From: Escherichia coli
GTDB taxonomy: Bacteria; Pseudomonadota; Gammaproteobacteria; Enterobacterales; Enterobacteriaceae
DNA: 64,000 bases
Direction: 5' to 3' (one strand)
NCBI RefSeq assembly: GCF_029227855.1
Contig: NZ_CP074357.1
This document shows positions 4,141 to 46,116 of this stretch, piece by piece. The translations under genes and the position numbers were made by a program. Numbering within the stretch: the stretch's first letter is position 1; the number at the start of each line of letters is the position of its first letter. The notes under the pieces are model-generated. The model did no database searches. It was not told the DNA's origin and saw nothing but the letters and a program-made list of their open reading frames with translations.

Positions 4141-5375
4141 GCGAACGTCGATATAGCCCGCTCGCGACGCTGTTCGCGGCGACCTTTCTCTTCCGGATCG
4201 GCAACGCGGTGGCGGCCCTCGCGCTTCCATGGTTCGTCCTGTCTCATACAAAGAGCGCGGCCTGGGCGGGCGCCACGGCCGCTAGCAGCGTCATCGCGAC
4301 CATCATCGGCGCGTGGGTTGGTGGTGGCCTCGTCGATCGGTTCGGGCGCGCGCCCGTCGCATTGATCTCGGGTGTGGTGGGCGGCGTGGCCATGGCGAGC
4401 ATCCCACTGCTCGATGCCGTTGGCGCCCTCTCGAACACTGGGCTGATCGCTTGCGTGGTGCTCGGTGCTGCGTTCGACGCACCCGGTATGGCCGCGCAGG
4501 ACAGTGAGCTGCCCAAACTCGGCCACGTCGCCGGGCTCTCCGTTGAGCGCGTCTCGTCACTGAAAGCGGTGATCGGGAACGTCGCGATTCTAGGTGGCCC
4601 GGCCCTTGGGGGGGCCGCAATCGGCCTGCTTGGCGCTGCGCCAACGCTCGGGCTGACGGCGTTCTGCTCCGTCCTTGCAGGTCTGCTCGGCGCGTGGGTG
4701 CTTCCCGCGCGTGCCGCTCGGACGATGACCACGACGGCGACTCTCTCCATGCGCGCCGGCGTCGCTTTTCTCTGGAGCGAACCCCTGCTGCGCCCTCTCT
4801 TTGGTATAGTGATGATCTTCGTGGGCATCGTTGGCGCCAACGGCAGCGTCATCATGCCTGCGCTGTTTGTAGATGCAGGACGCCAAGTAGCAGAGCTCGG
4901 GCTGTTCTCCTCAATGATGGGGGCTGGTGGTCTCCTTGGCATTGCCATTCATGCGTCGGTCGGCGCCCGGATATCAGCGCAGAACTGGCTGGCGGTGGCA
5001 TTTTGTGGCTCTGCGGTGGGCTCGCTTCTGCTTTCACAGTTGCCAGGCGTGCCGGTGCTGATGTTGTTGGGCGCGCTCGTGGGACTGCTGACCGGCTCAG
5101 TCTCTCCCATTCTCAACGCTGCCATCTACAACCGCACGCCGCCAGAACTTCTCGGCCGGGTACTCGGCACGGTCTCGGCGGTGATGCTGTCAGCCTCGCC
5201 CATGGTTATGCTTGCGGCCGGCGCGTTTGTCGACCTTGCTGGTCCGCTCCCTGGCCTCGTTGTATCGGCCGTGTTTGCGGGGCTCGTGGCTCTACTCTCG
5301 CTCCGTCTTCAATTTGCTACAATGGCGGCGGCAGCCACAGCCTCCGCCCCAACCCATACAGAAGGTGAACACTGA
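4137..5375 (+). CDS. mrx(A): MFS transporter Mrx(A) of the mph(A) operon
   Basis: 412-aa hydrophobic ORF overlapping mph(A) stop; multiple TM segments. Confidence 0.9.
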   Translation: MSERRYSPLATLFAATFLFRIGNAVAALALPWFVLSHTKSAAWAGATAASSVIATIIGAWVGGGLVDRFGRAPVALISGVVGGVAMASIPLLDAVGALSNTGLIACVVLGAAFDAPGMAAQDSELPKLGHVAGLSVERVSSLKAVIGNVAILGGPALGGAAIGLLGAAPTLGLTAFCSVLAGLLGAWVLPARAARTMTTTATLSMRAGVAFLWSEPLLRPLFGIVMIFVGIVGANGSVIMPALFVDAGRQVAELGLFSSMMGAGGLLGIAIHASVGARISAQNWLAVAFCGSAVGSLLLSQLPGVPVLMLLGALVGLLTGSVSPILNAAIYNRTPPELLGRVLGTVSAVMLSASPMVMLAAGAFVDLAGPLPGLVVSAVFAGLVALLSLRLQFATMAAAATASAPTHTEGEH

Positions 5376-5959
5376 TGCCCCGCCCCAAGCTCAAGTCCGA
5401 TGACGAGGTACTCGAGGCCGCCACCGTAGTGCTGAAGCGTTGCGGTCCCATAGAGTTCACGCTCAGCGGAGTAGCAAAGGAGGTGGGGCTCTCCCGCGCA
5501 GCGTTAATCCAGCGCTTCACCAACCGCGATACGCTGCTGGTGAGGATGATGGAGCGCGGCGTCGAGCAGGTGCGGCATTACCTGAATGCGATACCGATAG
5601 GCGCAGGGCCGCAAGGGCTCTGGGAATTTTTGCAGGTGCTCGTTCGGAGCATGAACACTCGCAACGACTTCTCGGTGAACTATCTCATCTCCTGGTACGA
5701 GCTCCAGGTGCCGGAGCTACGCACGCTTGCGATCCAGCGGAACCGCGCGGTGGTGGAGGGGATCCGCAAGCGACTGCCCCCAGGTGCTCCTGCGGCAGCT
5801 GAGTTGCTCCTGCACTCGGTCATCGCTGGCGCGACGATGCAGTGGGCCGTCGATCCGGATGGTGAGCTAGCTGATCATGTGCTGGCTCAGATCGCTGCCA
5901 TCCTGTGTTTAATGTTTCCCGAACACGACGATTTCCAACTCCTCCAGGCACATGCGTAA
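5375..5959 (+). CDS. mphR(A): TetR-family repressor MphR(A)
   Basis: 194-aa ORF overlapping mrx stop, N-terminal HTH region ..FTLSGVAKEVGLSRAALIQRFTNRDTLL.. Confidence 0.9.
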   Translation: MPRPKLKSDDEVLEAATVVLKRCGPIEFTLSGVAKEVGLSRAALIQRFTNRDTLLVRMMERGVEQVRHYLNAIPIGAGPQGLWEFLQVLVRSMNTRNDFSVNYLISWYELQVPELRTLAIQRNRAVVEGIRKRLPPGAPAAAELLLHSVIAGATMQWAVDPDGELADHVLAQIAAILCLMFPEHDDFQLLQAHA

Positions 5960-6396: not shown

Positions 6397-6718
6397 GGGC
6401 TCTGTTGCAAAGATTGGCGGCAGTCAGAGGTAGGCTGTCGCTCTGCGCCGATCAGGCGGCTGCTGCGAAATGGTGGTTGAGCATGCCCATGGCCTCCGTC
6501 AGCGCCGAGGGCCCAATGCCAAAAGCTCTCTCCACAAGGCGCACCTCGCCCCTGATGCCGGGCTGCAGGCACCAGGGGCGAGCCTGTCCTTTGCGCAGGG
6601 CTCGCATGACTTCGAATCCCTTGATCGTGGCATAGGCCGTGGGGATCGATTTGAAACCGCGCACCGGCTTGATCAGTATCTTGAGCTTTCCGTGATCGGC
6701 CTCGATCACGTTATTGAG
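6397..6718 (-). mobile_element. IS6100 remnant (IR plus 3' end of transposase), truncated by IS26
   Basis: IR GGCTCTGTTGCAAAGATTGGCGGCAGTCAGAGG at 6397; minus-strand frame gives IS6-family Tnp C-terminus ..[45 protein letters not shown].. Confidence 0.85.
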
Positions 6719-37443: not shown

Positions 37444-38109
37444 CTAACGACTACCACTTTTAAGTATGTATTGAGCCAGTTTTATATTCAGGCACACCAT
37501 ATTGCACTCTAGCTCTTTCATCATTCTTGAAGAACTCTTAATTAAGTATTCTTCAAGTGGGCCAGCATATGCCCCTGATGTCACGATCGTTAGTTGCGTA
37601 AGAGGATGAGTCAAACTCTCAATGCCCTTCAGGATGTCATTCTGGACAGCAGCAATATAAACAGGCGAAGCCGCAATCAAATATTCATCATTCGGGCTGG
37701 ACTGCATTAACTGGCTTATAGTTGCGCAACGGTTATGCTTACCTAGTGATTTTGTGATGGCTTTCCACCAGAGATCATGCCTGAATGGTACTTGATGAAA
37801 TGTCGCCTCGTAAGAGGGCACCCGATCTCGACTATTTAAAAACCCCATCCCGGCAGAGATTATCCACAACTCCAGATTTCTGGTTGAGTTTAAAATTTCC
37901 TTTGCCGTAGACCAGTGATTACCTGAATACAAGGACAATGCCGGTACCGCCTGATTACTTCTGGCGTCGTCTACAATGTTACTCCAGGCATATGCTGCGT
38001 CGTCCGGGGTTTGTTTTGGATCTATGTCCAATGTCGGCCAGACGTGGCCCTGATGATTCTTGCCCTTTGTACAGGAAGTGATTAAGTGTACTGAGCGTTC
38101 AGAGAACAT
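37444..38109 (-). CDS. hypothetical protein (221 aa)
   Basis: ORF track; second gene of a two-gene minus-strand unit; no motif recognised. Confidence 0.5.
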   Translation of the reverse strand: MFSERSVHLITSCTKGKNHQGHVWPTLDIDPKQTPDDAAYAWSNIVDDARSNQAVPALSLYSGNHWSTAKEILNSTRNLELWIISAGMGFLNSRDRVPSYEATFHQVPFRHDLWWKAITKSLGKHNRCATISQLMQSSPNDEYLIAASPVYIAAVQNDILKGIESLTHPLTQLTIVTSGAYAGPLEEYLIKSSSRMMKELECNMVCLNIKLAQYILKSGSR

Positions 38110-38166
38110 TATCTTCCTTACATACCCATAGAACAGCTTTCTAAGAACGGTGGGCTCGCCTGAAAA

Positions 38167-38547
38167 TTACAAATCAGCCCCTTTCACGGCATCATTTTGA
38201 TTCTTCGCGTCTGCCCCCAGTAAGATGACCGGTTTTCTGCATGACAGTGTTATTCCTAACAAACGCAACACAAAACCACGCCAGCCAGAGCAAATTTTTT
38301 CATTTGCTGCGTAAAGCCTATTGTTTTCTCTTTTAAGCTTCGCCCACTCGTTACAGAGGGTAACATCATCAAGCGCTGTTATATGCTTCGCCTCACCTTC
38401 GACGATAACGGTATGGATACCGTATGCTGTAAATCTCATACTATTTTCCAGAACCCAGTTGCGGTATTCGTCGAGTCCACCTTCGGAACCGGTAGCTCTG
38501 CGCCACATTTCAATTTGCTTGTGTGATGGGTCAAGTGTACTTGTCAT
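38167..38547 (-). CDS. hypothetical protein (126 aa)
   Basis: ORF track; first gene of the same unit, reading away from the 630-bp IR-rich intergenic region. Confidence 0.5.
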   Translation of the reverse strand: MTSTLDPSHKQIEMWRRATGSEGGLDEYRNWVLENSMRFTAYGIHTVIVEGEAKHITALDDVTLCNEWAKLKRENNRLYAANEKICSGWRGFVLRLLGITLSCRKPVILLGADAKNQNDAVKGADL

Positions 38548-39177
38548 TGAAGCCTCGTCTCAGCGATAACGCTTGAAATAGCCCGCTTTGGTCATCATGA
38601 AATTAGCCATCTGACTGGCGATTTGATTGTATCTTACTCATAGTGCCCTACCTATAGGTTAAAAAGGGGCATTTTCGCTTTATAGCGTGTTCAGCAGCAT
38701 CAATCCTCCCAAGAAAGGCTGGCTTATTAAGCCGGTCCATCATTTTCTGTATATCTCTCATCAATTTTTATATCCGCCCTGGAGTGCACCGTTCAAGCAC
38801 ACCGATTAGGCAGATAGTCACTAGTTAACTCTTTACTAGTGACTAAATTCCATTGATATACGTGACAACGTCACGTCATGAAAGCTTATAAATGCCTATT
38901 TTTCATACAATGGGATTTAATTAGGAGTAAATCCCATAGGCTTACATAAGGATGACAATTAAAAGCGTTAAATATCAACCAGATAGAATGATTACCCCCA
39001 ATTAATGGGCTCATCACATTATTTCACTGGCTGGGGTTATTGCTGGCATATCTGAAAGTGCTAATATGTTAGTCATTAGTAATTAGTAAAGCCTTTACTA
39101 AACGCGTTTCTACGTAAATTCTATAGGTTTTATAGTGTCCTACCTTTGCTCAAATCAAAATGTTCTGACATACCAAA

Positions 39178-40008
39178 ATGGAGTGTAAAATGACTCAAAA
39201 CCAGGGTTCTGAGCCAGTACCGGCGAGCCGGACAGGGCAGCTCATCAGCGCCCGGGATATGGCCATGCAGAAATTCGAAGAAGGGATGCGGTTAATCTCG
39301 GAAGCGTCGGAACTGTGCGGTCTCTCTCTCTTCACCAGCAGAATTATGCAGCCCAACGCATTTGGTCTTCCGTCGTCACTGGATCGCACCATCGAGGAGG
39401 GGCGTAAGGAAATTGACCGTAAAACGTGGAAAAGGCTCTTTGAAGAAACAGGTATGGACCGGTACTGGAACCATAAGCAAAAAGAAGCCTTTAACGAATC
39501 CCTTCGTACGGATCCGCCCGTCGCTTCCCTGGAGATTGTTAAGGGAACATTACAGCATGCACTGGCTAACAGACGAGACACCCTTGCAGAAGGTTTCGTT
39601 GATGTTCTCAACAAGCTTGACCGAAGTTTCAAAAGCAATGCCAGGCAATATACAATGCCAAAAAAGCTTGTTCTTCGGGGGATTTTTCCTGGTGTGAACG
39701 TGCTGAGGTACAACGGTTTCTCGCAGGACAATCACTTTTGTTTACGCGACTTTGAGAATATTGTATGCATCTGTTCTGATACTCCAACACCTGCAACCGG
39801 CGGTGGGCTGAGTATGGTCGACAGGCTGACGGCCATGAGAAATACAGAATTCACAGGCGAGGTCAGTGATGAGAATGGCTGGCGGTGTCGCCTGTTTGAG
39901 AATGGAAACGTTCATATTTGCATCGACAGTATCTCGCTTCTGAATGCTCTGAACGATCTTATCAGCATATATTTTGCAAACCAGCTTCCGGCCGCAGGAA
40001 AAAAATGA
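39178..40008 (+). CDS. hypothetical protein (276 aa)
   Basis: ORF track; stop overlaps start of the downstream coiled-coil gene (ATGATG at 40005). Confidence 0.6.
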   Translation: MECKMTQNQGSEPVPASRTGQLISARDMAMQKFEEGMRLISEASELCGLSLFTSRIMQPNAFGLPSSLDRTIEEGRKEIDRKTWKRLFEETGMDRYWNHKQKEAFNESLRTDPPVASLEIVKGTLQHALANRRDTLAEGFVDVLNKLDRSFKSNARQYTMPKKLVLRGIFPGVNVLRYNGFSQDNHFCLRDFENIVCICSDTPTPATGGGLSMVDRLTAMRNTEFTGEVSDENGWRCRLFENGNVHICIDSISLLNALNDLISIYFANQLPAAGKK

Positions 40009-41210
40009 TGATTGAAAATGATAAAGAAAAAAGCCTGAACGATGCTACCCCGCCAGAGGTGCAGAATGACATCCGCAGCGAATCCACTGAAAAATCAAAG
40101 GAAATGGGTCGTTCAAGGTACTCATCTATCGCGATGATCGATTACTTCAATGCAATCGAACGTCTGTGCAAAGAGAAAGAAATTAACCCGGAAAATATCG
40201 ATCTGAGCTTCAAAGTTCACTGGCTCAGAAACGCTGTTGGCGGCTCGTTTGCAAGGTCACAGGAGATGTTCGCGGAGTACCAGAAGTATGTTAAAGAGGT
40301 TCCTGAAGAGGCCCGTTACCTGGATATACCCGATGAGGTAAAGGTTGCACTCGGCGATATTATCTCGTACATCACCTGGCACTACCGTAGAAGCTATACC
40401 GCAATACAGAATGATAGTGTTAAAAAAGCTGAAGCACGTAGCATGCAGCTGGAGGAGGAGGTAACGCAGCTGTTACAGCGGCTTGAGCAAAGCGCTACCG
40501 ATATGGATGAGCTGAAACTTGAGAATCAGGCACTACAGGGTCGATTAGAGATCCGGGACAGTACCGTCAAGGAGTTAGAAACAAGGCTGAATGTTGCCGA
40601 AGCAGAACTCGAAACCTGCCATCACCAGTTAGATAGCACACGGCATGAATTGAGCCTCGCACAGCAGTCAAATGACTCACTCTCCCAGCAACTGGCTGAA
40701 CGTAAAACAGAGATCGCTGGTCACCTTGAATATCAAAAAAAGCTGAACGAAGAGATCAACACGCAGCGTTCTGATAACGCCGGTCTTTCCAGACAATGCG
40801 ACCAGTTAAGTCAGACTGTGTCAGATACAAAGGCAGAGAGGGACAGGTTTGAACAGGAATTGATTGCTGCACAGAACCTTTGTACTGAGCTGAAAAGTGC
40901 ACTGTCCGGGAAAGAGGGTGACCTGGTGGCGGTGAATGCCGAGCTTACTGAACTCCATAAACTAAACGAGTCGCTGAGCGCCGACCTGAATAAAGTAACT
41001 TTGGTCAGCCAGGGCTATGAAGCGGAAGTGGCTGAACAAAGCAATGAACTCAAAACGCTCCAGGCCAAAGTAATGAAGCTGGAAGCTACCCTGGAGGCGG
41101 AGAAAACAATCTCAGAATCCCTAAAAGGCACCATTGATACATTAACTGGTGCAATGGCAGGGGGAGGTACTGGAAAGTCAAAACAGCCGCGTAGCAGAAA
41201 AACATCATGA
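40005..41210 (+). CDS. coiled-coil protein, KfrA-like architecture
   Basis: ~401 aa from MMIENDKEKS; long heptad-like Q/E/L-rich segment ..LEEEVTQLLQRLEQSATDMDELKLENQALQGRLEIRDSTVKELETRLNVAEAELE..; start uncertain. Confidence 0.55.
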   Translation: MMIENDKEKSLNDATPPEVQNDIRSESTEKSKEMGRSRYSSIAMIDYFNAIERLCKEKEINPENIDLSFKVHWLRNAVGGSFARSQEMFAEYQKYVKEVPEEARYLDIPDEVKVALGDIISYITWHYRRSYTAIQNDSVKKAEARSMQLEEEVTQLLQRLEQSATDMDELKLENQALQGRLEIRDSTVKELETRLNVAEAELETCHHQLDSTRHELSLAQQSNDSLSQQLAERKTEIAGHLEYQKKLNEEINTQRSDNAGLSRQCDQLSQTVSDTKAERDRFEQELIAAQNLCTELKSALSGKEGDLVAVNAELTELHKLNESLSADLNKVTLVSQGYEAEVAEQSNELKTLQAKVMKLEATLEAEKTISESLKGTIDTLTGAMAGGGTGKSKQPRSRKTS

Positions 41211-41273: not shown

Positions 41274-41477
41274 TCAGCCCGTCCGCAGGAGTTTTCGTCC
41301 TTCAGTCAACAAATGCACTACCTTTTTTGAGTCTCCACTTTCCAGAGCAGAAAACACGTTACCGATTCTACCAACAGCTTGTATCTGAGTGATAACCCCA
41401 GTCTTGTAATCATCTAGGATCCCTGACAGGAAAGCGTTCAGTTTTGTCTGTTCGCTTAGCGAAAGCATGTAGGACAT
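41274..41477 (-). CDS. hypothetical small protein (67 aa)
   Basis: ORF track; immediately downstream of the 439-aa gene in the same orientation. Confidence 0.4.
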   Translation of the reverse strand: MSYMLSLSEQTKLNAFLSGILDDYKTGVITQIQAVGRIGNVFSALESGDSKKVVHLLTEGRKLLRTG

Positions 41478-41489
41478 TTTTTCTCCATT

Positions 41490-42809
41490 TTAAGCAGGTG
41501 TGTCAGTTGAAAGAGGTTTGCGTGATTCTGGAAAATGAGGCAGCACCATAGTTTCAGATGCTGTGGTCGCATCCCAGTGCCACCATCCATAAGGCCCATA
41601 TTCACGGTTGTAATAATCTTTTTTGAGTTGCTTTCGGGCCAGATAAGCAGGAGTGGCCATACCAAATACTTCCATCGGGAACGGCTTATCGCTTTTTGTG
41701 TCGAGCAGGTAGAAGTCAGGGAACACCTCACTAATACTCGCATCATAACGCATGGGCTTAACGTACTGCCGGTGCTCTGCATCCAGCTTTTCTGCAACAA
41801 CCGCCTCATAGGAGGAGTCCAGAGGTATCCAGTTCTCGCTAACGTGCATCAGCACAATTTGATGAGCTCTTACAGAAGGGCCTCTGCCGGTTACCGCAGC
41901 TGGTGACGTCAACGCAAAGACAACTATTTTCGCCCCGGATTTCCATGCTGCGTACTCCGATGAAAATCGTTTCTTTACGCTATCCCAATGGACTTCTGAA
42001 TTGAAAAAAATCAGCGGTAGCCCCCCAAAATTCCGCAGGGGTAAAAATTTAAGTGGCTTCTCATGCTTTTCAGCATCGTAGCGAGGTAAAACTGACAGGA
42101 GCATGAGACGTTTATCACTCATCGCCTGTGATGAAAGACGCTGAATTTGCGACTGAGCGACAGGTTGTTTCGGGTCAGGTACACCAATGAATAAATGGTC
42201 ACCTATGCAGGCTCTGCCGGTACGAATTTGTTTAGCGGTTTCAAGCAGACGATACCGTACCAGTGAATCGTTACGTTTCCCTGCCATTTTCGGGTACCAG
42301 ACATTCAGACCAGACTCTGTCCACAAAAGACTAAGCAAGCCCAGGAGGGTCATTGAGGCCTGACCTCCTTCTGGTCGCTGAACATGGGGCAGGGGAGGCA
42401 CTTCTGATTTTTCAGGAGGATCTTTCTCTGTCATACCGATACCGAGCCTTACAGCCATATCACCTTCGGTTGTAATCCGGACCACACCACTCGCATATCC
42501 TTTCAGGCCGGTATGCCGGGCATCAAGGGAGAAGAATACACAGGAAGGATCATGCTCAATGCCCGTGTTAGCGGCTTTGACGAGAATAAAGGCATCACCG
42601 TTCGGTAAAGCACGAACATAAAGTCGCTTTTCTCCTTTTCCACGACATCCGCAGGTGATGACTGATTTTTGACCTGAGGTGTGGTGTGCCTTTTTAAGAG
42701 CCGACTGCCACCCTTTAGCAAACTCATCCTGCGTTTGAAAGTCAGGTGAATACCTTTTGACGTTTGGATCGTCGTCGTAAGCAATCATCACTGCGAATTT
42801 TTGGCTCAT
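41490..42809 (-). CDS. hypothetical protein (439 aa), partner of the Dcm-like methyltransferase
   Basis: ORF with AGGAGA ribosome-binding site 6 nt upstream; no catalytic motif assignable by eye. Confidence 0.65.
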   Translation of the reverse strand: MSQKFAVMIAYDDDPNVKRYSPDFQTQDEFAKGWQSALKKAHHTSGQKSVITCGCRGKGEKRLYVRALPNGDAFILVKAANTGIEHDPSCVFFSLDARHTGLKGYASGVVRITTEGDMAVRLGIGMTEKDPPEKSEVPPLPHVQRPEGGQASMTLLGLLSLLWTESGLNVWYPKMAGKRNDSLVRYRLLETAKQIRTGRACIGDHLFIGVPDPKQPVAQSQIQRLSSQAMSDKRLMLLSVLPRYDAEKHEKPLKFLPLRNFGGLPLIFFNSEVHWDSVKKRFSSEYAAWKSGAKIVVFALTSPAAVTGRGPSVRAHQIVLMHVSENWIPLDSSYEAVVAEKLDAEHRQYVKPMRYDASISEVFPDFYLLDTKSDKPFPMEVFGMATPAYLARKQLKKDYYNREYGPYGWWHWDATTASETMVLPHFPESRKPLSTDTPA

Positions 42810-42831
42810 AGTAGTCTCCTAAACAGGAAGT

Positions 42832-42999
42832 TTAATATCCCAACCAGAGCAACACTTCCTGAGCGTCATACTGTTCCTTTACGCCCATGTCGCTAAAGAA
42901 TTCTTCGAAATCTGTTTCGGGAACGCAATGCCTGGACAGTTCTTGTAATGCTCGTTCTTTAGATACCGTCTCACCTTCAGCTGATTCGAAATACGTCAT
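42832..42999 (-). CDS. hypothetical small acidic protein (55 aa)
   Basis: Hand-translated: MTYFESAEGETVSKERALQELSRHCVPETDFEEFF..; below ORF-track size cutoff; sits between methyltransferase and 439-aa gene. Confidence 0.3.
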   Translation of the reverse strand: MTYFESAEGETVSKERALQELSRHCVPETDFEEFFSDMGVKEQYDAQEVLLWLGY

Positions 43000-43059
43000 G
43001 GTTGACCTCTGACATTATTACAACAATCTTAAGCATTTAAATTGATGAAGGAGCTCAGG

Positions 43060-44529
43060 TCAGCTGACTTCGTCGTAAAACTGCCGCAAGCGCTGGGAGG
43101 CTGCAAATTCAATTCGTGACTTCAGCAGTTTGGCGACGGCCGCAAAGACATCAACGACCACGGAGTTCCCAAACTGTCTGTAAGCCTGTGTATTGGACAC
43201 AGGGATACGGAAAACACTTTCCCCGGGTTTATCGAAGCCCATTAGCCTGCTGCATTCACGTGGCGTTAGCATGCGTGGCCGACGGTCCATGTTGTATGTG
43301 TTATGGAAATCAGTTTCTCCCAGTTCATGAGACCAGCCCCGATCAATAAGAATTTCAGATCCGTCTTTCATATAGCGGCTTGAGAGGGTTCTGGTGACAC
43401 TATTAACATTGGAAGGATCTACTAGTCCAAAACCAAAACCATTGCCTTTTGCCGCATGTTTCTTTGCATAGTTGTATAAGTACTCCCAGAGTTTAGGGGA
43501 GAGGATGTATTTACTATCTACGCTCGGATCCAGTAAATCTGAGAGAGAAGGGCGCTTGTCCGGATAAAAGTCTTTAATGTCTCTCAGAGTAAAACCGTCT
43601 TTCAGACGTAGGTCGCGGCGAAAACCAATAAGGACGATACGTTCACGGTGCTGGGGTCGGAAATGACGGCCATCGATGACTTTAGGATCATCCGCGCCCG
43701 TGCTTTCGCTGTTTGCGACGTCGTAGCCAAGCTCATCGAGCGTTTTCATGATGATGTTAAAGGTATTACCCTTATCGTGACTCTTCAGATTTTTTACGTT
43801 TTCCAGAACAAAAATTGCAGGTTGTTTTGCCCGGATGATCCTGGCCACATCAAAGAAGAGCGTACCCTGAGTGTCGCACTCGAAACCGTGTTTGCGACCC
43901 ATAGAGTTCTTTTTACTGACACCGGCGATGCTGAATGGCTGGCATGGAAATCCCGCAAGAAGAACATCATGATCCGGGATAGAGGCATCGATAAATTTGT
44001 ATGCCTCGTCATCAGTAACCTCGGGCCGGTTGCTAAGAGTGATGTCACGGATGTCTGAATTGAAGCGGTGCTCGTTCTCATCGCAATACCAGTTCGCCCG
44101 GTAAGTACGGCTGGAATAAGTATTCCATTCGCTCGTGAAAAGACATTTACCACCGATGGCATCAAATCCGCTTCGCAGTCCACCTATCCCTGCAAACAGA
44201 TCGATAAAGCTAAAGTGCCTGTCCTCATAATCAGCAGGTCGTGAAGGTATTAAAGTCTGTAGATAGCGTCCATCTGCGATACTCAGCTCACAATGCTCAG
44301 GTATGCATGTAACCTGACGTTTAAGGGATGCACGGGACCAATTACTGCCATTTTCATCATTTAATACCTGAGCCAGATATTTCAGGTCATAAATGGTCGA
44401 AGCTGTTAACAAAGTTTTGTGGATCAGAGATGGTGTTTTATCCACATCATTCAGGTCTGTCTCAAGATCATGAGTGTAACGTTTCATCCAAACTCTCTCA
44501 GGAATAATATCTTTGAGATAGATTAACAC
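43060..44529 (-). CDS. DNA cytosine-5 methyltransferase, Dcm / M.EcoRII family
   Basis: 489 aa; motif [11 protein letters not shown], motif [10 protein letters not shown], motif [17 protein letters not shown]; colinear with E. coli Dcm by eye. Confidence 0.9.
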
Positions 44530-44662
44530 GCTTAATTTGGATTATTTTTTGGTTCAGGTTCTAAATTTATTGTGATTATTCTGCCTTTAAGTTGCAAAAA
44601 GATTGGTTTTAAGCCCGCCCATGAAATAATGACTTGTTAAAATACTGCCTGTAAATAGGCTT

Positions 44663-45217
44663 GTGGATACATGTCTGTACTCAACAAATCAAGGTGAAAT
44701 GATGTTTTTTTTAACAAAGTTACTTTTGCCCATCATGATTGTTGTATTCCCAGTGGCGTCCTGGGGGAACTCAACAACTTTTGAGGCAAAGGTGGTTAAG
44801 ATTGTTGACGGTGACACCATAACTGCGTTGGATGCTCAAAACACAACCATCAAAATACGGATGTATGGTATAGACGCTCCTGAATCTAAACAGGCTTTTG
44901 GCCAAAAAGCAAAACAGGCCTTAACCACAGCTATAGCAACTAAAATCGTTACCGTGATAGACCATGGTACGGATATCTATGGCCGTATGTTAGGTACCAT
45001 CTGGTTAGATGGATATGATATCAATGCCTCTATGGTGGACAGTGGATATGCGTGGGTTTATCGGTTCGAAGATAACGCCATTGTCCCTGGCTATATCAAA
45101 TATGAATCCGCAGCACAAAAGGAGGCAAAAGGGTTATGGGCAGACACCAACCCTGTCCCACCATGGCAGTGGAGACAGGCAAACGAAAAGCCCAGAAAGG
45201 TGAAAGAGAAGAAATAA
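44663..45217 (+). CDS. secreted SNase-like (thermonuclease-family) nuclease
   Basis: Signal-peptide-like N-terminus (probable start MMFFLTKLL at 44699); ..VKIVDGDTITALD.., ..RMYGIDAPE.., ..YGRMLGTIW.. resemble staphylococcal nuclease. Confidence 0.75.
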   Translation: MDTCLYSTNQGEMMFFLTKLLLPIMIVVFPVASWGNSTTFEAKVVKIVDGDTITALDAQNTTIKIRMYGIDAPESKQAFGQKAKQALTTAIATKIVTVIDHGTDIYGRMLGTIWLDGYDINASMVDSGYAWVYRFEDNAIVPGYIKYESAAQKEAKGLWADTNPVPPWQWRQANEKPRKVKEKK

Positions 45218-45219
45218 CC

Positions 45220-46116
45220 ATGATGAAAGAGCCTCATCCGTTACTTCAGTTGGTACTAAACGATTCCGGTCGTCTAACCATGCCTGTTTATTATAGAGAT
45301 CAACAGTATTGCCCGACTTGCCTTACAAAGGTGTTGAAGAGTGAGGATGGAAGTTTGGCGCACCTCGGGGAAATAAATCAAAATACATGTAGACCTTCTA
45401 TTTCAGTAGTTGTGACAAAAGCAATTATTGAAATGTTATGTGACGGGGAAAAAATATATGTAAATCCAATACGACACCGAGGCCGGGTGCTGGCACCCTC
45501 AGTAATTTTTTCTCCCGACACTCACACTTTCAAACCGTTTATAAATACAGACTATCAGCCTGTGGGAGCAAACTGGAAAAGTGAAAAGGGATATAAACTC
45601 GGTCTGTTTTATCTCAAAGATCGAGCCAACTCTATCAATAAAGAGGAATTTGATTTCATTGCCGTTATAGACCCTGAGGCAATGCAGAAAGAATTTATTT
45701 CGGCCTGGTCTGAGGTTGATGAAAAAAATCCATTGGAAACGCTGAAGCAGATCTTACGATCTAAAAACAACTCTTCTTTATGGGTAAAATGGCCTGGCAA
45801 AATTGAGCATGCGCAAAAAGGAAATTACAACGAAAATTACTGGTTCGATTATCAATCTGATAATCAGGAAGTGAACTGTACGGTCTCTGTTGTAGGTATC
45901 GAAGGTAACAGTTCCGGTGAGACAATTTATAGATTGCAAACTTTGCTAAAGCGTAAGCTCAATGAATATCAACTGGTTCGGTCTTTAGGGACTATTATGC
46001 TTCTTGATAATACCGGGAATATGATTCCATCAAACCATCCTTATTTTGAAGTCATCTCAAAAGCATGTATAAATGGAGTGCGTGACTTTGTTCGTCAAAA
46101 CCCGTGGGTAGTCTGA
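45220..46116 (+). CDS. hypothetical protein (298 aa)
   Basis: ATGATG start 3 nt after nuclease stop (ORF track begins earlier at 45136). Confidence 0.55.
   Translation: MMKEPHPLLQLVLNDSGRLTMPVYYRDQQYCPTCLTKVLKSEDGSLAHLGEINQNTCRPSISVVVTKAIIEMLCDGEKIYVNPIRHRGRVLAPSVIFSPDTHTFKPFINTDYQPVGANWKSEKGYKLGLFYLKDRANSINKEEFDFIAVIDPEAMQKEFISAWSEVDEKNPLETLKQILRSKNNSSLWVKWPGKIEHAQKGNYNENYWFDYQSDNQEVNCTVSVVGIEGNSSGETIYRLQTLLKRKLNEYQLVRSLGTIMLLDNTGNMIPSNHPYFEVISKACINGVRDFVRQNPWVV

Follow-up and report, generated by a model that had tools for sequence, protein, structure and literature searches.

What is the function of the 642-bp gap that separates two divergently oriented sets of genes on a multidrug-resistance plasmid of Escherichia coli? 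The gap lies in a 64,000-nucleotide stretch of contig NZ_CP074357.1 (referred to here as the window; all positions are counted from its first letter). RefSeq places no annotated feature in it, with minus-strand genes on its left and plus-strand genes on its right. A preliminary description, made from the letters alone, had remarked on its inverted repeats and suggested an operator-rich control region, an origin of transfer, or a partition site. The comparative analysis presented here favors the first of these: the right-hand part of the spacer, 38805–39125, is probably the cis-regulatory region of an operon of IncHI-type plasmids that encodes a DUF4942 protein and a coiled-coil protein. This operon is previously uncharacterized. 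With less confidence, we consider that its coiled-coil protein probably autoregulates it.

The locus was placed by comparing a 3.2-kb stretch around the spacer with plasmid records. The stretch matches 1177 of them and is 100% identical to many plasmids of 150–280 kb from Salmonella, E. coli, and Enterobacter, which are typed IncHI2/IncHI2A, MOBH, and MPF_F; the window thus derives from an IncHI2 multidrug-resistance plasmid. IncHI2 plasmids are major carriers of mcr-1, extended-spectrum β-lactamase, and metal-resistance genes, and the spacer is present in more than 1100 sequenced plasmids. What was an unannotated gap becomes a testable map, with one well-supported promoter, four candidate operators, and one candidate regulator. 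The features that frame the question are the following.

38548–39189, unstranded: intergenic spacer, 642 bp, 38% G+C
39190–40008, plus strand: DUF4942 protein gene, 272 residues, first gene of the rightward operon
40005–41210, plus strand: coiled-coil protein gene, 401 residues, with a predicted helical N-terminal head (residues ~40–140) and a ~250-residue coiled coil; candidate autoregulator

The spacer measures 642 bp when the DUF4942 gene is taken to start at 39190, as in RefSeq, where a good GGAG lies 5 nt upstream, and 630 bp, the length first reported, when counted to the first in-frame ATG at 39178. The overlap of the two rightward genes, also reported earlier, amounts to 4 bp.

An excess of inverted repeats in the spacer

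All of the inverted repeats listed in the preliminary description are present. Arms of 11 bp, TAGTCACTAGT (38815–38825) and ACTAGTGACTA (38835–38845), flank a 9-nt spacer; arms of 10 bp, ATGGGATTTA (38910–38919) and TAAATCCCAT (38928–38937), flank an 8-nt spacer; and TTAGTAAAG (39083–39091) pairs with CTTTACTAA (39093–39101). A fourth palindrome, ACGTGAC-AAC-GTCACGT at 38860–38876, had been overlooked. Perfect inverted repeats with arms of at least 7 bp and loops of at most 12 nt number 10 (nested), as compared with 0.8 ± 1.2 in shuffled sequence, a roughly ten-fold excess that was reached in 0 of 1000 dinucleotide-preserving shuffles (P < 0.001). An arm as long as 11 bp appears in 0.5% of shuffles. 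TAGTCACTAGT, with one mismatch allowed, occurs three times in the 64-kb window, each time within the spacer, a result obtained in 0 of 100 shuffles.

An A+T-rich spacer with several inverted repeats is also what one might expect of an origin of transfer (oriT), and the earlier suggestion of one was accompanied by a call to look for a relaxase. No relaxase, coupling-protein, or accessory gene was found within ±20 kb; in a sister plasmid, the closest transfer genes (trhI, trhN, and trhU) are at a distance of ~62 kb. The conserved block described below always goes with the DUF4942 operon and not with transfer genes. We regard it as extremely improbable that the spacer is the oriT of the plasmid.

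One common upstream architecture in ten diverged loci

The regions upstream of the DUF4942 and coiled-coil gene pair were aligned for ten loci. Four belong to IncHI plasmids, namely IncHI2 (two lineages), IncHI1A, and IncHI1B; the remaining six are relatives, metagenomic or genomic in origin, with full-length coiled-coil proteins. The two genes are adjacent in every locus examined. The spacer aligns at ~91% with that of the R478-like IncHI2 lineage, and its alignment with those of the IncHI1A and IncHI1B plasmids is confined to islands, which are the palindromes. Conservation beyond IncHI2 is limited to the right-hand ~320 bp, 38805–39125, where all 10 loci have one architecture in the order O1-B-TAnnAT/C-P2-O2-F. 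The elements, as they appear in the window, are given below.

38814–38846, unstranded: O1 (block A), palindrome TAGTCACTAGT-N9-ACTAGTGACTA, half-sites TAGTmA/TkACTA
38860–38876, unstranded: B, palindrome ACGTGAC-AAC-GTCACGT
38906–38911, plus strand: P1, candidate promoter, −10-like hexamer TACAAT overlapping palindrome C by 2 nt
38910–38937, unstranded: C, palindrome ATGGGATTTA-N8-TAAATCCCAT, arms conserved, loop variable
39040–39067, plus strand: P2, predicted promoter, −35 TTGCTG (39040–39045), 16-nt spacer, extended −10 TG-C-TAATAT (39059–39067, TGCTAATAT)
39070–39101, unstranded: O2 (block E), TAGTCAt-TAGTAAt-TAGTAA followed by inverted TTTACTAA; palindrome TTAGTAAAG-C-CTTTACTAA
39110–39122, unstranded: F, conserved block CTACGTAAATTCT, consensus CTrYGTGAATTCT

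Conservation differs from element to element. The core of B, GTGAC-N3-GTCAC, is present in all ten diverged loci with invariant arms. In palindrome C the loop varies even within IncHI2, and four base pairs have changed on both arms, a number that was reached in 0 of 500 shuffles; the P0018 locus, for example, has ATGCGATATAAT..ATTATATTGCAT. In O2, which in the ten-locus alignment consists of two direct and one inverted TAGTAA repeat, four pairs have likewise changed on both arms (5 of 500 shuffles), and the same P0018 locus has TCATAAC-AAA-GTTATGA. In slid controls, the symmetry of both sites collapses. The dyad symmetry of C and O2 is, on this comparison of sequences, maintained via compensatory changes.

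O1 and O2 have the same half-site, and their dyad centers lie 262 bp apart. The similarity between O1 and O2 (blocks A and E) is greater within a locus than between loci (permutation P = 0.02), and in the most diverged locus both have changed from AGTAA/TTACT to ATAAC/GTTAT. That the two sites drift together within loci argues for a binder that is encoded by the module and co-evolves with them. None of the spacer motifs was found elsewhere in the 64-kb window or in ~125 kb of further IncHI2 DNA (~190 kb in total).

The promoter signals are also held in position. P2 was the top plus-strand candidate in a position-weight scan of the spacer of the window, and an extended −10 element, TGnTAnnnT, stands in the same alignment column in seven of eight non-redundant loci. 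TTGCTG-16-TG-C-TAATAT has the features of a σ70 extended −10 promoter, namely TGnTAnnnT, the A2 and T6 positions, and a TTG-type −35 at a distance of 16–18 nt. Its predicted start is at ~39072–39075, such that O2 spans approximately +1 to +30. The hexamer of P1 is TAnnAT-like in 7 of the 9 aligned sequences, and its A2 and T6 are kept in all 9.

Palindromes common to ten diverged loci, flanking an extended −10 that is conserved in position and bearing compensatory substitutions, uphold the idea of an operator-rich control region. The accompanying idea that this region drives divergent operons stands for one side only. The conserved part goes with the rightward operon, whereas the leftward neighbor differs between loci and may be IS110, a gene with an FRG domain, an unknown open reading frame (ORF), or an hns operon.

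The same comparison bears on the possibility that the spacer is simply an A+T-rich, H-NS-silenced region and insertion hotspot whose repeats are chance occurrences or relics of mobile elements. Its G+C content drops locally to 34–35%, an hns gene lies downstream on the left side, and Tn2, IS26, and Tn7-like insertions are found within the spacer of sister plasmids. The excess of repeats, however, holds against composition-preserving shuffles, ten diverged loci have the elements in the same order and position, with compensatory change, and all three of the characterized insertions lie outside the core at 38805–39125. The comparative data already largely refute such an explanation, and we consider it very unlikely.

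The direct repeat ATAGTG(C/T)CCTACCT, to which the preliminary description had also drawn attention, does not belong to this architecture.

38640–38653, plus strand: direct repeat ATAGTGYCCTACCT, ATAGTG(C/T)CCTACCT, IncHI2-specific; second copy at 39132–39145

Both copies exist, with the second displaced by one position from the coordinate first reported. Two or more matches to the pattern occur in 7 of 100 shuffles; it is not conserved outside IncHI2, and the two copies probably do not form a functional pair. The non-conserved part of the spacer also contains a perfect palindrome of 10 bp, ACCTATAGGT (38650–38659), half of which, CTATAGGTT, recurs at 39121–39129. Its likeness to an MqsA box (ACCT-N2-4-AGGT) was dropped on account of that position. 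A second likeness, that of O1 (ACTAGTTAACT) to a trp operator, was dropped as well, in that the ACTAGT spacing differs and is not kept in relatives.

A promoter-operator model and the hairpin alternative

In the model that we favor, transcription of the operon would start at the σ70 extended −10 promoter P2 (TTGCTG-16-TGCTAATAT), with a further, activator-dependent start possible upstream at the conserved TACAAT box of P1. The four dyad-symmetric sites (O1, B, C, and O2) would serve as operators, and we infer that they are bound by proteins. O2 places three 7-bp TAGTAA repeats on the start of P2, where a bound dimeric repressor would block RNA polymerase. O1, ~25 helical turns upstream, might act together with O2 through a DNA loop or a bridge. 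C abuts the −10 box of P1, and B, ~45–50 bp upstream of the P1 start, may be the site of a factor with unchanging specificity. O1 and O2 would most likely be bound by the coiled-coil protein that the operon itself encodes, which would repress its own expression as KfrA does. Several palindromic operators packed around promoters in one spacer are likewise a feature of the KorA/KorB/KorC regulons of IncP-1 plasmids. In those plasmids, the same operators are found at many promoters, whereas the motifs considered here are confined to a single spacer.

Palindromes can also act as nucleic acid hairpins. As 5′-untranslated region (5′-UTR) or 5′-terminal stem-loops, they could set the stability or translation of the mRNA, or they could form a promoter or primosome-assembly site on the single-stranded DNA (ssDNA) that enters a recipient cell. 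Folded as ssDNA, both strands form four local hairpins (z = −5.0 and −4.8), and the preservation of the stems of C and O2 by compensatory changes would be expected of hairpins too. The positions of the elements speak against hairpins: both candidate promoters are downstream of O1 and B, which would not be in an mRNA, and in C and O2 the left arm contains the predicted start. In addition, the stems have few base pairs and are rich in A+T, the center of O2 is a single nucleotide, and a hairpin would leave the direct repeats of O2 unexplained. An F-type ssDNA promoter (Frpo-like) has its −35 and −10 boxes in a long imperfect hairpin. The folds of the spacer contain four short local hairpins instead, with the promoter boxes unpaired, and the minimum-energy fold has local hairpins only, without an O1:O2 stem. 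In Rfam, no family matches the spacer. The sole hit is a sub-threshold hammerhead in coding sequence (HH9, 39203–39267, minus strand, within the DUF4942 gene; 22 bits compared with a gathering threshold of 52, E = 0.047), which is probably a chance match.

The DUF4942 family provides a further argument for events at plasmid entry, as distant homologues (~23% identity) are found in the leading regions of IncI-type and IncL/M plasmids. In an IncI-γ/K1 plasmid (L023), the homologue ygfB (4956–5804) lies two genes from nikA/oriT and near ardA; in an IncL/M plasmid (L022), the homologue (4965–5825) is beside Hha, antirestriction, and ssb genes. Neither of the two has a coiled-coil partner. That these distant homologues are leading-region genes makes a role of the operon in establishment plausible; a hairpin mechanism is less so. 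Taken together, hairpin function of the palindromes appears unlikely.

The coiled-coil protein as a candidate regulator

If O1 and O2 are operators for a protein encoded by the module, the product of 40005–41210, named coiled-coil domain-containing protein in RefSeq, is the natural candidate. Its predicted structure has a helical head of ~100 residues and, C-terminal to it, a confident coiled coil of ~250 residues. In the AlphaFold model, helices 110–270 and 276–385 mostly have a predicted local distance difference test (pLDDT) score >90. A word-indexed protein search with the head domain gave only fragments, and an exhaustive HMMER search was used instead; among 1.8 billion proteins, it returned only 17 cluster representatives. 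Full-length alignment of eight relatives gave 26–42% identity to the window protein. The "leading-region" family DUF4942 is thereby linked to a rare, KfrA-like coiled-coil protein of ~17 sequence clusters.

The comparison with KfrA rests on architecture. KfrA proteins are classed in this way; they autorepress via repeats in their own promoters, and binding of KfrA to its operator helps the stable maintenance of plasmid RA3 (PMC7783346). The KfrA proteins of IncP-1 and IncU plasmids (RK2, R751, and RA3) have a globular helical N-terminal head and a long coiled-coil tail, as does the window protein, and short repeats overlap the gene's own promoter in those systems as well. At the level of sequence, a weak colinear profile match was obtained. 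With hhalign, an 8-sequence profile of the head scored 23.2 against 121 KfrA heads (P = 0.003, probability 10%) over 78 colinear columns, which take in a G-G-S-F turn motif. Column shuffles scored 11.2 ± 2.3, with 1 of 800 reaching 23.2, and the reversed profile scored 8.6.

There are also differences. The coiled-coil gene is second in its operon, behind DUF4942, and linkage to korA-incC-korB or to kfrB/kfrC was not seen in any of the loci, where the neighbors are DUF4942, DUF1173, Dcm methylase, and SNase genes. The operator of RA3 is one block of five 9-nt repeats and that of RK2 a single inverted repeat, whereas the spacer studied here appears to have two distant operator clusters together with two unrelated palindromes. 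In sum, the label "KfrA-like" given earlier fits the architecture, a helical head with a ~250-residue coiled coil, and is weakly supported by sequence. By analogy, the protein plausibly works like a KfrA; its membership in the KfrA family is unproven.

By description, a second coiled-coil protein invites comparison. TlpA of the Salmonella virulence plasmid, which is mostly coiled coil, is a temperature-sensing autorepressor with an N-terminal DNA-binding part, and IncHI plasmids are themselves thermoregulated. One could then imagine that the gene pair and its four-palindrome region form an undescribed, IncHI-specific module in which a KfrA/TlpA-like protein bridges the two operator clusters and GTGAC-N3-GTCAC docks a second conserved factor. 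Such a module would switch an establishment or anti-defense operon on at plasmid entry, or by temperature, and off afterwards. This extension is speculative, and we would not expect it to hold in full.

The link to KfrA raises another possibility for the repeats: the KfrA-like protein might assemble on them by bridging or forming filaments, and they would then act as a centromere-like or plasmid-maintenance site, with transcription control being secondary. Two clusters of one half-site, a long coiled coil with a head predicted to be of a DNA-binding type, and the maintenance role of KfrA in RA3 would all be in keeping with such a site. A partition site, the third of the original proposals, is nevertheless poorly matched by the surroundings: no parA/parB or parM/parR genes adjoin the spacer, nor are par genes present within ±20 kb, and approximately seven half-sites in two small clusters do not make up an array of iterated sites. 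The sites overlap a conserved promoter, and the motif is absent elsewhere in the IncHI2 DNA examined. A centromere-like function therefore seems quite unlikely to us.

Several observations weigh against a promoter-operator region controlled by the coiled-coil protein. The compensatory changes in the palindromes fit a nucleic acid hairpin equally well. Concerning the promoters, P1 has no good −35, and a consensus promoter/terminator scan at a stricter threshold reported no promoter in the spacer, only a terminator-like hairpin at 38717–38737. Concerning the regulator, neither the window protein nor the eight relatives match Pfam KfrA_N (PF11740), even at E ≤ 10. Generic matches to coiled-coil or SMC-like proteins are all that Pfam and NCBIfam give, a sequence search of the PDB had no hits, and fold matches are weak. 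The operon is not obviously included in the published R27 microarray table of temperature-responsive genes. Finally, a ~68-kb transposon lies between P2/O2 and the genes in many IncHI2 plasmids, which implies that the link between promoter and genes is dispensable for plasmid survival.

The terminator-like hairpin (GGCTGGCTTATTAAGCCGGTC followed by a T-rich tail) is in the left, IncHI2-specific part of the spacer and is not conserved in IncHI1. A 38-residue ORF (38648–38764, minus strand) overlaps it.

A Tn7-like transposon in the predicted leader of the operon

In many IncHI2 plasmids, homology to the window breaks at 39136–39141. The break is caused by a Tn7-like element with tnsA, tnsB, tnsC, and a TnsD-family gene together with the sil and pco operons. 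Its ends, TGTCCGAGGACAATAAAGTTGTA...ACA, are of the TGT...ACA form with TnsB-type repeats, and it reaches ~68 kb with later resistance-gene inserts.

39136–39140, unstranded: TGTCC, unoccupied target of the Tn7-like tnsABCD sil/pco element, in what is predicted to be the 5′-UTR of the operon

The 5-bp duplication TGTCC flanks the element in pSH16G2457 and pR18.0234_299k, and the corresponding site in other compared loci is at 6594 (L003), ~986 (L008), and ~33880 (L009). The element is of the same type as the Tn7/pco/sil element of pMG101, R478, and relatives, and the window has the empty site. Because the element sits in the predicted 5′ leader, the genes would be uncoupled from their native control in many clinical plasmids.

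The presence of this element on IncHI2 plasmids has been published, as has its transfer from one of them to yhiN (PMC8417528). We found the same element at the 3′ end of yhiN at 675 places on E. coli chromosomes. The idea that the plasmid site mimics yhiN was rejected, there being no similarity between the 3′ end of yhiN and window positions 39020–39140.

The R478-like lineage (L002) has ~91% identity to the window to the left of the transposon and 100% to the right, on the DUF4942 side, which suggests a recombination boundary at the transposon. The spacer has two other breakpoints, one near 38637 from a Tn2/blaTEM-1 insertion and one near 38749 at an IS26 junction; both are outside the conserved core.

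Neighboring genes

To the left of the spacer lie two genes on the minus strand.

38167–38547, minus strand: 126-residue hypothetical ORF, first gene left of the spacer
37444–38109, minus strand: DpdC-like gene, 221 residues, following the 126-residue ORF

The 221-residue product, a DUF6884 protein, strongly matches DpdC of the 7-deazaguanine DNA-modification (Dpd) system (PADLOC, E = 4e−59), and the IncHI1B homologue of the 126-residue protein is annotated "tgtA5 cluster protein 2." Neither dpdA nor dpdB was found near 37444–38547, and the two genes thus look like an orphan DpdC-like pair on the plasmid backbone.

To the right, a conserved module (41274–46116) encodes a DUF1173 protein, a ~55-residue ORF, and a Dcm-type cytosine methylase on one strand and an SNase-like nuclease with a ~300-residue ORF on the other. 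The DUF1173 gene, the small ORF, the Dcm methylase gene, and the SNase gene are the usual downstream neighbors across loci, and the module accompanies the DUF4942/coiled-coil pair in most relatives (including L014, L016, and L019). The Dcm gene of the window may be the counterpart of R0154 of R27. R0154, listed as "cytosine methylase," is 4.7-fold induced at 25 °C in the R27 microarray paper.

Elsewhere, a ~90-nt sequence occurs in seven copies, at 2967, 7340, 25296, 29871, 33471, and 57529 on the plus strand and 58902 on the minus strand, which we take to be IS26. These seven putative copies show that a mosaic resistance region makes up much of the window. They also account for an excess of CTGGGATTTA in the window, which is unrelated to palindrome C.

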